A stretch of DNA of 64,000 bases from Escherichia coli (GTDB taxonomy: Bacteria > Pseudomonadota > Gammaproteobacteria > Enterobacterales > Enterobacteriaceae). The DNA is taken from the NCBI RefSeq assembly GCF_001677475.2, contig NZ_CP015229.1; one strand, given 5' to 3'. Made by a program: the position numbers and the translations under genes. The stretch's first letter is position 1. The number at the start of each line of letters is the position of its first letter. The notes under the pieces were generated by a model, which was not told the origin of the DNA, ran no database searches, and was given only the letters and a program-made list of their open reading frames with translations. This document shows positions 16,055 to 30,518 of the stretch, piece after piece.

Positions 16055-19000
16055 ATGGAAGAGGCATTCTGGGCGGCAAGGCAGGGTGATGCCCTGCTGC
16101 ATACGTCGTTTATGGCAGATGTGCTGGGGGCAGTTGTAGAGGTTGCCGCCACAGCCCTGGTGGATGTTCTGGTTGTCGGAACCATGGCGGCGCTGGGCGG
16201 AGTTGAAGTGGCAACGCTGGGCTGCTCAACCATTTTAGCGATCGGTATAGCAACAGCGGTATTTATGTCGTATCAGGGCTGGAATGACCGAATCAGTAGG
16301 GAAAGTGAGCAACTGGCGAACTGGCTTTTCCCGCCTCAGATTGAAGGTTACATCCTCACCGGCTCTGGCGACACATGGATCAACAGCAAACCTGCCGCGC
16401 GGGCCGCGGCGACTGCGGCATCGCGGCAGGACATTGAGGCGCAGGAGGCGCAGGCGAAGGCGGAACAGGAAGAAGCGCAGCGTCAGGAGGATGCCAGAAC
16501 GTTCCTGGATGTGGCCGGGGAATATCTGGAAATGGCGGGGGCCATAGCCCTGGCGGTTAACCCGGTGACAGGGCCTGTGCTGATGTCCCGGGCGCTGCAC
16601 GACCAGCTCAGTACGGAAGAAGGGCGTTCTGAAATGGTGGATGGCGTGACACATTTTGTGTCGGAACTATGGCAGCCCACCGTGGCCAGTGCGGCCCCGG
16701 GCTCCACCCCGACCCCTGACGATAAAATCGACTGCCATAAACATCCCTCCTCACTGACGCAGTTTCTCGCACAAAAAAAAGCCGCCTTTCTGGATGACCC
16801 CCTGGGAACGGCCCTTAACCTGCTGAGTCCGGGCGGTATGCTGGAAACCGCCTTTCAGGGAGTGAATGCGGTTATTGGCAGCATCAGTAATCTGTTCAAA
16901 GGCGATGATGAACCGCCCGCAGCGGAATATATCGCGGAAGGCGCGCGGGATGTGCGTATCAACAGCCAGCCGGCGGCACGCAGCGGGGCACGCTGCACCT
17001 GCGAGGCCAGGGTGGTGAATGAGCCGGGGAACGGGGCGTTTGTGTCACCGGATGTCCGCATTGGCGGTCCGTTACTGGTGGTCAGGGATATCAGAAGCGG
17101 CAGGTCGCAGATAACCCTGGTGGCAACCGTGGCGCTGATGTTTCTTCGCCCGGGCAAAATGCTTTCTAAAATCGCCTGTTTTGCTGCCAGTGTCGGGATG
17201 GGGGTGATGACGCAGAAGGCCATCAGTGCCCTTCCGCATCCGGTCAATGCCGCCACCGGAGCCAAATATCTGGCCGATGACGATGATTTTGACTTCAGTC
17301 TGCCGGGCCACTTTCCGCTGGACTGGCAGCGCGTGTACAGCAGTCGTGACGACCGCACGGAAGGGATGTTCGGGCAGGGCTGGAGTGTAATGTATGAAGT
17401 CAGCCTCGAGCGCACGCCGGGTACTGCTGACGAAAACTGTATGACCTTTGTGTCGGGCATGGGACGACGTCTGGATATGGAGGCCGTGCTGCCGGGGAGC
17501 GGGTTTTACAGCCCCGGCGAAGGACTGGCAGTACGGCGGGGTGAGCAGGGGCACTGGCTTATCAGCAGCGATGACGGGCAGTTTTTTCTGTTTGAGGCCG
17601 ACCCGCGTCACCCGCAGCGCCAGCGGCTGAAAATGCTGGGCGACCGCAACAGCAACTGTCTGAATCTGTACTACGACGAGCTGGGGCGCATCACGCAAAT
17701 CAGCGGTGAACAGCAGCGTCCGTGCATCCGTCTGCATTATGAACTGGCGGCGCATCCCCGGCGGGTGACACAGATTTATCAGCATTTCCCTGAGATGGCT
17801 CCTTTACTGCTGCGTCGTTACCGCTATGACGAGGCCGGCGACCTGAACGGCGTGTACGACAGCACGGGGCACCTGCTGCGCGAGTTTGCTTACGACGAAA
17901 ACCACTGCATGACCCTGCACCGCCAGCCGGGCGGCGAAGGGTATTATTACCAGTGGGGCTGGTATGAAGGCCCGGATGACGCAGCGTGGCGGGTGACGGG
18001 GCACCACACGGACAGCGGTGAACAGTACCGGCTGGCGTGGAGCCTGGCGGCACGCAGGCTGTGCGTGACGGACGGGCTGGGGCGCACGCGTTATCATCAG
18101 TGGGACGCGCAAAATCAGGTGACGGCGTACCAGGACGAAGCCGGGCAGGTGACGACGTTCCGCTGGAGCGACGAAGAACGGCTGTTACTGGGAATGACCG
18201 ATGCGCAGGGCGGCAAATGGCGCTATGTGTATGACCGGCAGGGGCATATCACGGAGACGCACGACCCGCTGGGGCGGGTGGCACAGACACAGTGGCACCC
18301 GGTGTGGCACCAGCCGGAAACGGAGGTGGACGCGGCGGGGAACAGCTGGTGCTGTGAGTACGATGAACGCGGCAATCTTCTTGCGGTGACCGACCCGCTG
18401 CAGCAGAACACCCGGTATCAGTATGACCGCCACGGCCAGGTGGTGCAGATAACGGATGCGCGCGGGGGGAATAAATACCTTCAGTGGAACGAAGACGGGC
18501 AGCTCATGCGGCACACGGACTGTTCCGGCTCGCAGACGGCCTGGTTCTACGACGAACGCACGCGGCTGATACGGATGACAGACGCGCAGAGCCACAGCAC
18601 GCGCTACGGGTATGACGACAGCGGCCACCTGACGGAGGTGATACTGGCGGACGGCCGCACGGTGAATTACCAGTCGGACGCGGCGGGCAGGCTGGTGAAG
18701 TACACCAGCCCGATGGGGAGGATAACGCGCTGGCAGCGGGACGGGCAGGGCCGGGTGCGCAGCCGGACAGACGCGACGGGGCGCAGGACGGCGTTCGGGT
18801 ACGATGCCTACGGGCGTCTGGTCACGCTCACGAACGAGAACGGAGAAAGCTACCGGTTCCGCCATGACGTGCTGGACCGTCTGGCGGAGCAGATAAATCC
18901 GGACGGCTGCCGCCAGACGTACCGCTACAACGCGCTGAACGCGGTCACGGAAGTGGTGTTCACCGGGGACCGGGGCGGTGAAATCCGCCACCGGCTGGCA

Positions 19001-28745: not shown

Positions 28746-30518
28746 GTGGTGTTCACCGGGGACCGGGGCGGTGAAATCCGCCACCGGCTGGCACGTGATG
28801 CGGCGGGCCGGCTCACGGCAAAGGAGACAGCCGATAGCCGAACGGAATACGTCCATGATGCGGCAGACCAGCTACTGGAAATCCGCCGCCGACGGTCGGA
28901 TGCCGGGGAAATGGACGCACCGGAGATTATCCGTTTCAGTTACGACAGACTGGGGCGGATGCTGACTGAGGAGACGGCGCAGGGCGTCCTGACCCATCAG
29001 TACGATGAACTCAGCAACCGGACAGCCACCACCTTTCCGGACGGCAGAACGCAGCGTCATCTGTACTACGGCAGCGGCCATCTCCAGCAGATAAATCTGG
29101 ACCGGGAGGTCATCAGCGAGTTCACACGTGACGCCCTGCACCGGGAAGTGCTCAGAAGTCAGGGGCGACTGAGCACGCGGCAGCTTTATGACCCCGCCGG
29201 GCGGCTGAAGCGCAGGGAGACATACAGCGGGATGCGCGGGGTGGTACCGGAGACGTTCACGGACCGGCAGTACAGCTACAGCGGCGAGGATGAACTGCTG
29301 AAGACGCGGCACAGCCGGCGGGGGGAAACGGATTACTTCTACGACCCCACGGGGCGCATCACGGCGTGCCGCTCGGAGGATGAGGGGTATCTGGCGAGCT
29401 GGCAGTACGACGCGGCGGGAAACCTGCTGGGGAGGCGCGCGGGGGAAAGGGCCACGGCAGAAAACAGCGTGGTGCCGTTCAACCGGCTGATGTCTTACCG
29501 TGGTGTGCACTACCGTTATGACGAATTTGGCCGGACGGTGGAAAAGGAGGGCCGGAGCGGCACGCAGAGTTACCGTTATGATGCGGAACACCGGATGGTG
29601 GAAGTGACGACAGCGCGGGGGACATACCGGTATGTGTACGATGCGCTGGGGAGGCGGACGGAAAAACAGCACATCAGCCCTGACGGTAAAGCGTACAACC
29701 GGACGACATTTTTATGGGACGGAATGCGGCTGGCGCAGGAGAGCAGGCCGGAGGGAATAAGTAGCCTGTATATCTACAGCGACCCGGGGAGTTATGAACC
29801 GCTGGCGCGGGTGGATAAGGCGGGCAAAGAGGGCCCGAACCGGATACTGTATTTTCACACGGATGTGAACGGTGCGCCGGAAGAGATGACGGACAGTGAC
29901 GGGAAAATCGTGTGGGAGACGGGGTATCAGGTCTGGGGTAACACGATACAGGAGAAGGACCACGGCGGGGTGGAGCAGAACCTGCGCTACCAGGGACAGT
30001 ACCTCGACAGGGAAACGGGGCTGCACTACAATCTGCACAGGTACTATGATCCGGATGTCGGGCGGTTCATGGTAACGGACCCGATAGGGCTGAGAGGCGG
30101 ATTAAACTTATACCAATACGCGCCTAATCCGTTAAGCTGGATCGATCCTCTTGGATTAAGTGCCGCCTCTGATTTACCTCAATTAAAAGGAAGATCCCCA
30201 GGGGCAATAGGTTCTATTCTTACTGATAATGGATTCAATTTAGATAAACAAACAAGTACCGGGAATCAGACTTGGAGCCACGCCGATGGTTCTAAAGTTC
30301 GTGTCGATCCCTATGGAAACCAAAGTATGACTATGAAAAACGGTGATCCATTACCGAAATCAGGAGCTAACGCACATGTGCATAAATATGATCCCGGTGA
30401 GATACCGCTGAATGACAGAGGCATTCCGAGTACAAATCCAAATGAAACACATATAGGGATCAGGAATCCAAATGATTATTCTACAAAACGAGGGCGGGCC
30501 CATGGGTGCGGCGTATAA
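28746..30518 (+). CDS. orphan Rhs fragment C: about 1.4 kb of Rhs core plus a distinct C-terminal toxin (about 30141..30515)
   Basis: 590-aa ORF; the first about 465 aa nearly identical to residues about 970-1430 of the main Rhs (VFTGDRGGEIRHRLARDAAGRL…[27 protein letters not shown]), then a unique tail SAASDLPQLKGRSPG…ANAHVHKYD…. Confidence 0.8.
   Translation: MVFTGDRGGEIRHRLARDAAGRLTAKETADSRTEYVHDAADQLLEIRRRRSDAGEMDAPEIIRFSYDRLGRMLTEETAQGVLTHQYDELSNRTATTFPDGRTQRHLYYGSGHLQQINLDREVISEFTRDALHREVLRSQGRLSTRQLYDPAGRLKRRETYSGMRGVVPETFTDRQYSYSGEDELLKTRHSRRGETDYFYDPTGRITACRSEDEGYLASWQYDAAGNLLGRRAGERATAENSVVPFNRLMSYRGVHYRYDEFGRTVEKEGRSGTQSYRYDAEHRMVEVTTARGTYRYVYDALGRRTEKQHISPDGKAYNRTTFLWDGMRLAQESRPEGISSLYIYSDPGSYEPLARVDKAGKEGPNRILYFHTDVNGAPEEMTDSDGKIVWETGYQVWGNTIQEKDHGGVEQNLRYQGQYLDRETGLHYNLHRYYDPDVGRFMVTDPIGLRGGLNLYQYAPNPLSWIDPLGLSAASDLPQLKGRSPGAIGSILTDNGFNLDKQTSTGNQTWSHADGSKVRVDPYGNQSMTMKNGDPLPKSGANAHVHKYDPGEIPLNDRGIPSTNPNETHIGIRNPNDYSTKRGRAHGCGV

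Follow-up and report, generated by a model that had tools for sequence, protein, structure and literature searches.

Genomic organization of the rhs locus

The window, meaning the whole 64,000-nt stretch of Escherichia coli chromosome analysed here (GCF_001677475.2, contig NZ_CP015229.1), contains the rhs locus that lies between kdp-ybfA and ybgA-phrB. At this locus a full-length main rhs gene of the prePAAR type (1560 aa) is followed by four orphan toxin/immunity cassettes, and a long piece of the core is retained only in cassette C. The array also encloses a decayed element with an XerC-type recombinase and a primase. Features are given below in window coordinates.

15808..16036, + strand: pseudogene of a chaperone (eag / DUF1795, DcrB-related) that has lost ~224 bp internally; only the last 66 of 150 codons are still in frame
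16055..20737, + strand: main rhs, 1560 aa, with prePAAR motif, PAAR-like region, DUF6531, YD repeats, Rhs-associated core, DPIGL...DPLGL linker and tip CT1
18912..20366, + strand: direct repeat copy 1, 3′ part of the main rhs core
20367..20737, + strand: toxin tip CT1, 3′ end of main rhs
20734..21168, + strand: putative immunity gene imm1, 144 aa, ATG at 20734
21213..21542, − strand: intact symE-family gene, 109 aa (NF010128, E = 4e-11)
21600..24900, + strand: GC-rich HTH-primase-XerC element remnant, primase truncated and xerC frameshifted, aligned to E. coli EC554
25005..25790, + strand: orphan cassette A, with an 85-nt core tail, CT-A (25060-25515) and immA (25527-25790)
26263..28391, + strand: orphan cassette B, with core tail and start of CT-B (26263-26373), rest of CT-B (27727-27993) and immB (28011-28391)
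26374-27667: ISEc1 / H-repeat copy 1, interrupting CT-B of cassette B
28453..28695, − strand: truncated symE copy, abutting the 5′ end of the orphan C core
28705..30159, + strand: direct repeat copy 2, the orphan C core fragment
28746..30518, + strand: orphan C open reading frame, 590 aa from a GTG, core fragment plus CT-C (30160-30518)
30531..30815, + strand: putative immC, 94 aa
31329..32062, + strand: orphan cassette D, with core tail, CT-D (31441-31734, Tox-ART-HYD1) and immD (31736-32062)
32595..33576, + strand: H-repeat / ISEc1 copy 2, internally deleted, forming a second direct-repeat pair with 26374-27667

The kdp-ybfA / ybgA-phrB position and the H-repeat (ISAs1-family) copies at the 3′ end are shared with rhsC in E. 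coli K-12, whose layout is ybfA-rhsC-...-ybfD-ybgA-phr; unlike rhsC, the main gene of the window is of the prePAAR type and encodes 1560 aa. The same flanking genes were confirmed in E. coli CT282, 21F61 and EC554, and the main gene itself was matched in only 233 of 5426 complete E. coli genomes. Its product (ANO87881.1 / WP_065226381.1) has the build of an Rhs polymorphic toxin, with YD/RHS repeats and an Rhs-associated core that ends in PxxxxDPxGL. YD_repeat_2x matched 11 stretches of it (E = 6.5e-65) and Rhs_assc_core matched residues 1360-1437 (E = 1e-28); the sequence reads MVTDPIGL...DPLGL; the Pfam matches to the main-gene domains were obtained on the orthologue encoded by contig L008, described below. 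The prePAAR motif AARQGDALLH (pattern AARxxDxxxH) occupies residues 8-17, and the PAAR match is weak (E = 0.0016) and faint also in the L008 orthologue.

Type VI effectors of the prePAAR/PAAR Rhs class go with a cognate Eag (DUF1795) chaperone and, as a rule, a vgrG upstream. What is retained of eag here corresponds to residues 85-150 of the intact E. coli 2012C-4221 gene, at 97% identity, and the same deletion was found in CT282 and L008. No vgrG was found between ybfA and rhs, and strain 2012C-4221 has an intact vgrG-eag-rhs arrangement at another locus. With eag a pseudogene and vgrG missing from the locus, delivery of any tip from the main rhs is uncertain.

All tips diverge completely after DPLGL, and the small open reading frame after each is a putative immunity gene; the exact imm1 protein occurs in 42 assembly blocks, in every case immediately 3′ of CT1. 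Pfam, NCBIfam and PDB sequence searches found no toxin family for CT1, CT-A or CT-C. Two of the orphan tips serve as main tips elsewhere, CT-B (uninterrupted) in 21F61 and CT-D in CT282. Homologues of CT-C are Rhs tips in many genera; the search for them gave short or partial proteins only and was blind to fusions, because full-length Rhs proteins form one 7194-member cluster whose representative lacks CT-C.

Direct repeat of the Rhs core

Local alignment of positions 18912-20366 with 28705-30159 returned one ungapped block of 1455 nt with 1424 identities (97.9%), both copies being on the + strand at an offset of 9793 nt. A near-identical direct repeat of ~1.4 kb of Rhs core was what the preliminary description had proposed from its reading of the translations, and the nucleotide alignment it called for bears this out, the identity being high, unfragmented and in frame. 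The coordinates it gave (18911-20340 and 28712-30140) were right to within ~10-25 nt, though the two intervals were 7-8 nt out of register with each other. Only 13 of the 31 mismatches fall within the first 1388 nt (99.1% identical), and the remaining 18 are grouped in the last 67 nt, which code for the DPIGL...DPLGL linker. The five longest stretches without a mismatch measure 305, 263, 252, 117 and 89 nt. At the protein level the common core of main Rhs and orphan C differs by 5 scattered substitutions in 462 aa up to DPIGL, as close as had been claimed, and the tails are then wholly divergent. The pair is thus a direct repeat long and similar enough for recombination between main and orphan rhs. 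The 9.8-kb interval between the copies holds what had been listed for it, namely toxin 1/immunity 1, the GC-rich insert, cassettes A and B and H-repeat copy 1.

Orphan C begins at main-gene core position 18912, immediately after the truncated symE, and is an orphan rhs-CT/immunity cassette in that it combines a core fragment with a distinct tip and its own immC and has no N-terminal delivery region. An assembly artefact was ruled out as the origin of the repeat by independent spanning contigs, since contig L017 (GCA_031341795.3, 9792 nt) is 100% identical to window 19545-29168 and so runs from the interior of copy 1 to the interior of copy 2. A further contig, L009, matches window 27669-35619 at 99.99%, and the two-copy array is reproduced, at 100% identity, in independent draft assemblies.

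Array and fused forms of the locus

A crossover between the two copies was simulated and gave an open reading frame of 4671 nt with a single stop codon, encoding 1556 aa. Contig L008 (Logan ERR14024652) reads kdpB-kdpA-ybfA-rhs(1556 aa)-immC-symE and matches this predicted fusion at the kdp-ybfA locus, with the main rhs joined to the orphan tip and immC behind it; its Rhs differs from the simulated recombinant protein at 5 residues. The flanks are near-identical to those of the window, with 4 mismatches in 8174 nt upstream and 0 in the 840 nt past 30132. Both the fusion of main rhs to toxin C and the presence of its junction in a related strain, as foreseen in the preliminary description, are therefore seen in L008, a single contig. 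It is the only contig in the collections to show this fusion, coming from the Logan short-read assembly of one run, and the exact fused protein was found once. An artificial 3723-nt recombinant, assembled from unique main core, repeat, CT-C and immC, was searched against 5426 complete RefSeq E. coli genomes; there was no contiguous match to the main rhs-CT-C junction, and CT-C occurred only in 2012C-4221, as a short orphan at another rhs locus.

Over 1375 nt of core, L008 has 4 differences from the orphan copy of the window and 9 from the main copy. Of its shared-derived sites, 19047 has the base of the main copy and 19119, 19120, 19898 and 20233 have that of the orphan copy, so that the informative sites fit one exchange at 19049-19118, by deletion or integration alike, with 19047 as the only informative site to the left. 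L008 also carries a patch of ~40 nt at the DPIGL linker in which 12-14 positions differ from both window copies. A donor for this patch was not found in the window or in loci L001-L024, and at least one extra event is needed to explain it.

A second natural pair of array and fused forms is given by E. coli 21F61 and CT282. The main and orphan cores of 21F61 are 100% identical over 1385 nt, and CT282 matches 21F61 except that it lacks 2518 bp, the flanks agreeing at 2730/2731 and 2847/2847 positions. As the 21F61 copies leave zero informative sites over these 1385 nt, the crossover in this pair is not locatable. Copies within one genome differ at 13 sites in the window and 0 in 21F61, and copies compared between the genomes differ at 24-28.

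Proposed recombination and alternative explanations

We consider it likely that homologous recombination between the main core and the orphan C core links the array and the fused form. The sequences show the repeat, its fitness as a recombination substrate, both architectures in near-identical backgrounds and SNPs distributed in a way that is consistent with one exchange. Of the two intervals, one is the 3′ core in a full-length rhs of the prePAAR type and the other is the piece of core kept by the downstream orphan C. Since the copies have the same orientation, no gaps and a common reading frame, one RecA-type homologous crossover at any point along them would excise 9793 bp as a circle, leaving a chromosome that would encode a 1556-aa Rhs with tip C and immC directly next to it; in the reverse reaction, such a circle would integrate and turn the fused form into the array. 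The genes imm1, immA and immB would be missing from the recombinant. The event may have run in either direction; RecA dependence of the pathway is inferred, as is toxin switching as a phenotype, in which the fused gene may change the toxin delivered via the type VI secretion system.

The reverse reaction is also the basis of the strongest alternative, that the repeat is the scar of a C-terminal displacement. Here an ancestral rhs-CT-C would have received a circle carrying core-CT1-imm1-...-cassette B-symE by one crossover, pushing the old tail downstream, where it is now a silent orphan and no switch that is used or selected. This is possible, though we find it somewhat doubtful. The exchange point inferred from the SNPs is identical for integration and excision, the decayed elements of the interval (frameshifted xerC, truncated primase and ISEc1 in CT-B) could have come as one block, deletion would cost three immunity genes, and the model is already published (PMC2935791). 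Displacement is nevertheless compatible with the repeat as a recombination substrate, being the same reaction reversed, and the array is seen in dozens of assembly blocks of the lineage versus one for the fused form, which would speak more for a rare derived deletion than for an ancestral form that rarely survives.

It is improbable that the fusion in L008 is instead an assembly chimera of a genome with both copies, in which case it would be no natural recombinant. The contig does come from an automated short-read assembly and, at the 13 core positions where the window copies differ, has main-type bases at some and orphan-type bases at others, but sites 19043 and 19047, only 4 nt apart, disagree in type and the linker patch belongs to a third haplotype. 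Neither the mixed sites nor the patch could be obtained by bubble popping between the window copies, so these parts of L008 are real, read-supported sequence. Contigs from two-copy genomes break in or at the repeat (L006, L010, L012-L014, L017, L019-L024), whereas L008 is continuous from unique upstream DNA, across the repeat, to CT-C and immC. We think it equally improbable that orphan C works without recombination, being expressed from a start inside it as a TA-like module of toxin and immunity gene, with the core homology incidental: the in-frame, GTG-initiated open reading frame of 590 aa and the internal expression of rhs tips reported for Salmonella orphan rhs (PMC7043789) speak for it, but no promoter-like site was seen upstream of orphan C (consensus scans being weak evidence), a terminator-like hairpin lies there at 28414-28446, and nothing in the sequence requires this reading.

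Returning to recombination between the two cores, the ends of the exchanged unit can be considered in light of the symE genes. An opposite-strand symE copy stands behind every immunity gene, and PGAP labels the orthologues 'SymE family type I addiction module toxin'. The symE/core junction at 28695/28696 is exactly common to the window and 21F61, where the same 1.4-kb orphan core bears CT-D, and the CT1 and CT-C cassettes, both accompanied by a copy of symE, co-occur in an array at a different chromosomal site. That the exchange unit is a defined symE-bounded cassette, not an arbitrary stretch of core homology, nonetheless seems unlikely to us. The symE-family type I toxin genes could be circle-junction marks of mobile rhs-tip cassettes, and could also act as addiction modules that penalise cassette loss.

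Comparison with known rhs systems

Recombination between main and orphan rhs has been shown experimentally in Salmonella LT2 over 522 bp at 95% identity (Koskiniemi 2014, PMC3967940). The rhs-main/rhs-CT-orphan pair of Salmonella Typhimurium LT2 (STM0291/STM0292, PMC3967940) likewise consists of a full-length rhs followed by an orphan with a direct, near-identical core, and recombination joins the main rhs to the orphan tip while removing the main tip and its immunity gene. The homology described here is longer and closer (1455 nt at 97.9%), and the interval is 9.8 kb, as opposed to one cassette in LT2, and includes the remnant of an element and a copy of an IS besides three toxin/immunity cassettes. 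Two further differences are that the chaperone gene here is a pseudogene, and that the E. coli case is known from sequence and the LT2 case from experiment.

Excision and integration of circles by homologous recombination has been proposed for rhs arrays (Jackson 2009, PMC2935791). The enterobacterial C-terminal displacement arrays of that study share with this locus dissociated tips downstream and core fragments almost identical to the upstream gene. The present locus differs in offering two natural before/after pairs with near-identical flanks (window/L008 and 21F61/CT282) and in that every boundary between cassettes has a symE-family gene.

Toxin swapping by this mechanism is in the literature, and the locus adds a genuine though unremarkable case of it. 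Orphan rhs tips with core sequence in common with the main gene, and recombination between main and orphan rhs, have been described since 2009-2014, and that picture is unchanged by our findings. What natural isolates provide is one rhs locus in near-identical backgrounds, present both as a multi-cassette array and as a fusion to a formerly silent tip, a coexistence that the published displacement and recombination models predict. The window and L008 are a handy pair with which to test how often such events happen in E. coli and in which direction they run.

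Organization of the rhs locus

Judged by its sequence, the window is E. coli chromosome; its sdh-suc genes share 99% identity with E. coli genomes and its main Rhs protein is ANO87881.1/WP_065226381.1 of E. coli. The gene order below was based on the window sequence, domain matches and annotated E. coli loci. Orphans are downstream toxin/immunity cassettes, CT denotes a toxin tip and imm a putative immunity gene.

Gene order of the rhs locus (window coordinates)
kdpB, kdpA, then ybfA (start of the locus)
15808-16036, broken eag gene
16055-20737, + strand, main rhs, 1560 aa
Directly after main rhs, imm1
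21213-21542, minus strand, symE
About 21600-24900, remnant of a GC-rich HTH-primase-XerC element
Orphan A and immA
25837-26070, minus strand, symE fragment
Orphan B and immB, interrupted by ISEc1/H-repeat copy 1 (26374-27667)
28453-28695, minus strand, symE fragment
28705-30518, orphan C
30531-30815, immC
30903-31136, minus strand, symE fragment
Orphan D (Tox-ART-HYD1) and immD
IS remnant, then H-repeat copy 2 (32595-33576)
ybgA, phrB (end of the locus)

The main rhs encodes the prePAAR motif AARQGDALLH, YD repeats and an Rhs-associated core. CT1, CT-A and CT-C matched no family in Pfam or PDB. Approximately 175 nt of the N-terminal region of main rhs (16150-16323) were left unaligned by megablast to the alleles of E. 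coli strains CT282, 21F61 and EC554, with both sides aligning at 96-98.6%. The GC-rich insert (60-72% GC) is decayed, its primase missing ~2.2 kb relative to EC554 and its xerC split across two frames. An IS3-family element at 35600-37100 (ORFs 35663-36193 and 36298-37020), between phrB and dtpD, is missing from CT282, 21F61 and EC554.

A long direct repeat joins main rhs and orphan C

A repeat search and local alignment placed the 3′ core of main rhs (18912-20366) against the core fragment of orphan C (28705-30159) in a single ungapped block of 1455 nt with 1424 identities (97.9%), both copies on the + strand and spaced 9793 nt apart. The direct core repeat of the preliminary description was therefore borne out, with coordinates right to within about 10-25 nt and a correct inventory of the interval separating the copies. 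Only 13 mismatches fall within the first 1388 nt (99.1% identical) and 18 within the last 67 nt, which code for the DPIGL...DPLGL linker; the longest perfect runs are 305, 263 and 252 nt. The encoded proteins differ by 5 substitutions across the 462 residues leading up to DPIGL, and the tails beyond are unrelated. Orphan C alone among the orphans retains a long core piece, A, B and D being homologous to main rhs over just ~80 nt around the DPxGL linker.

An assembly artefact was ruled out by contigs from other assemblies. L017 (GCA_031341795.3, 9792 nt) matches window 19545-29168 at 100% and therefore spans from inside the first copy to inside the second. L009 (27669-35619, 99.99%) and L006 (30094-40815, 100%) also agree with the window.

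Other direct repeats are present. The two ISEc1/H-repeat copies (95.5% identity over 915 nt, plus a further 67 nt; spacing 6221) are in direct orientation, the first splitting toxin tip B and the second having a ~313-nt internal deletion. If this pair recombined, the remaining part of cassette B would be lost along with C and D. Orphans B and D are each preceded by a 529-nt stretch, repeated directly at 87% identity (25815-26343 and 30882-31409), that consists of a symE fragment and a short core tail. Along the array, a symE-family gene or fragment on the minus strand comes after each immunity gene. The symE-core junction at 28695/28696 is common to the window and 21F61, where the same 1.4-kb orphan core carries CT-D as opposed to CT-C in the window. 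We consider it improbable that tips are exchanged as defined units, mobile or addictive, in the form of symE-bounded cassettes. In other E. coli assemblies (L015, L016, L018, L022), short CT-C/immC and CT1/imm1 orphans, each with a symE copy, are both part of a single long array elsewhere in the chromosome, close to ivy, fadE and gmhA, and so the same tips circulate between rhs loci.

A relative carries the fused gene

The repeats align in frame, and a simulated crossover at either end gave the same 4671-nt ORF of 1556 aa. An exact-protein look-up with immC found L008, a 14.9 kb contig from the Logan assembly of run ERR14024652, containing kdpB, kdpA, ybfA, a 1556-aa Rhs, immC and the start of symE. 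Its alignment to the window covers 10738-20366 (99.72%) before moving on to 28696-30972, with 4 mismatches in 8174 nt upstream of the repeat and none in 840 nt downstream of 30132. Between its Rhs and the simulated recombinant there are 5 residue differences. Given these near-identical flanks and the 1556-aa Rhs followed by immC, a very close relative has exactly the architecture predicted, including the junction of main rhs to toxin C.

The 1375-nt core of L008 has 4 differences from the window orphan copy and 9 from the main copy. With CT282, 21F61 and EC554 as outgroups to exclude changes private to one window copy, the shared-derived sites left in L008 carry the main-copy base at 19047 and the orphan-copy base at 19119, 19120, 19898 and 20233 (19174 also fits). 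This pattern fits one exchange within the 70-nt identical block 19049-19118, a weak placement because there is a single informative site to the left of the block. A linker patch of ~40 nt (L008 9562-9602, window 30091-30132) has 12-14 differences from both window copies; being unlike either, it needs a further event, and no donor was found in the window or loci L001-L024.

Either of two directions would produce this pair of forms. A 9793-bp circle could leave the array to give the fused gene, or the same circle could enter a fused gene to give the array, and the symmetrical SNP pattern is accounted for equally well by both. The survey leans toward a rare derived deletion, because dozens of assembly blocks have the array form and a single one has the fused form. 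No main gene fused to CT-C occurs among 5426 complete RefSeq E. coli genomes, in which the sole occurrence of CT-C is a short orphan elsewhere, at another locus, and CT1 and its neighbours are contiguous in one genome only. A chimeric assembly of L008 is unlikely, since its sites of different types only 4 nt apart and the patch as a third haplotype must both exist in reads, and L008 passes through the repeat whereas contigs of two-copy genomes break in it (L006, L010, L012-L014, L017, L019-L024).

A second pair shows the same relationship. In 21F61, main rhs with CT-B is followed by immB, symE and a 1.8-kb orphan bearing CT-D, and the core copies, spaced 2518 nt apart, show 100% identity across 1385 nt. 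In CT282, CT-D is fused to main rhs and the flanks match 21F61 at 2730/2731 and 2847/2847 positions; therefore, CT282 corresponds to 21F61 lacking the DNA that separates the repeats. Each of window tips B, C and D is thus joined to main rhs in another strain. Core copies show 13 and 0 differences within a genome versus 24-28 between genomes, which fits recurrent main/orphan core exchange or a need for near-identical donors.

Implications for toxin switching

Toxin switching as a function is something we infer with caution, because upstream of main rhs the chaperone gene eag (DUF1795, DcrB-related) has lost ~224 bp internally (as in CT282 and L008), vgrG is absent from the rhs locus, no T6SS genes lie within the 64-kb window, the recombinant would lose imm1, immA and immB, and orphan C may be silent. 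An intact vgrG-eag-rhs arrangement is found in E. coli 2012C-4221 at another locus. Upstream of orphan C there is a terminator-like hairpin and no promoter-like site was seen, a pattern that may hint at a silent orphan. Salmonella has the same problem of immunity loss, where the authors propose duplication before recombination (PMC3967940).

Jackson et al. 2009 described arrays of dissociated rhs tips with core fragments almost identical to the upstream gene, and proposed circle-mediated excision and integration through homologous recombination (PMC2935791). In Salmonella LT2, Koskiniemi et al. 2014 found that 522 bp shared by main and orphan rhs at 95% identity supports recombination, joining the orphan tip to main rhs in an event selected during passage (PMC3967940). 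On sequence grounds, the window locus shows what defines an orphan cassette and also what defines a substrate for main/orphan recombination, and a fused relative exists. The earlier interpretation, that recombination between the repeats would fuse main rhs to toxin C and set up toxin switching, is supported on its own terms, and the locus is an ordinary, well-preserved instance of the published mechanism.
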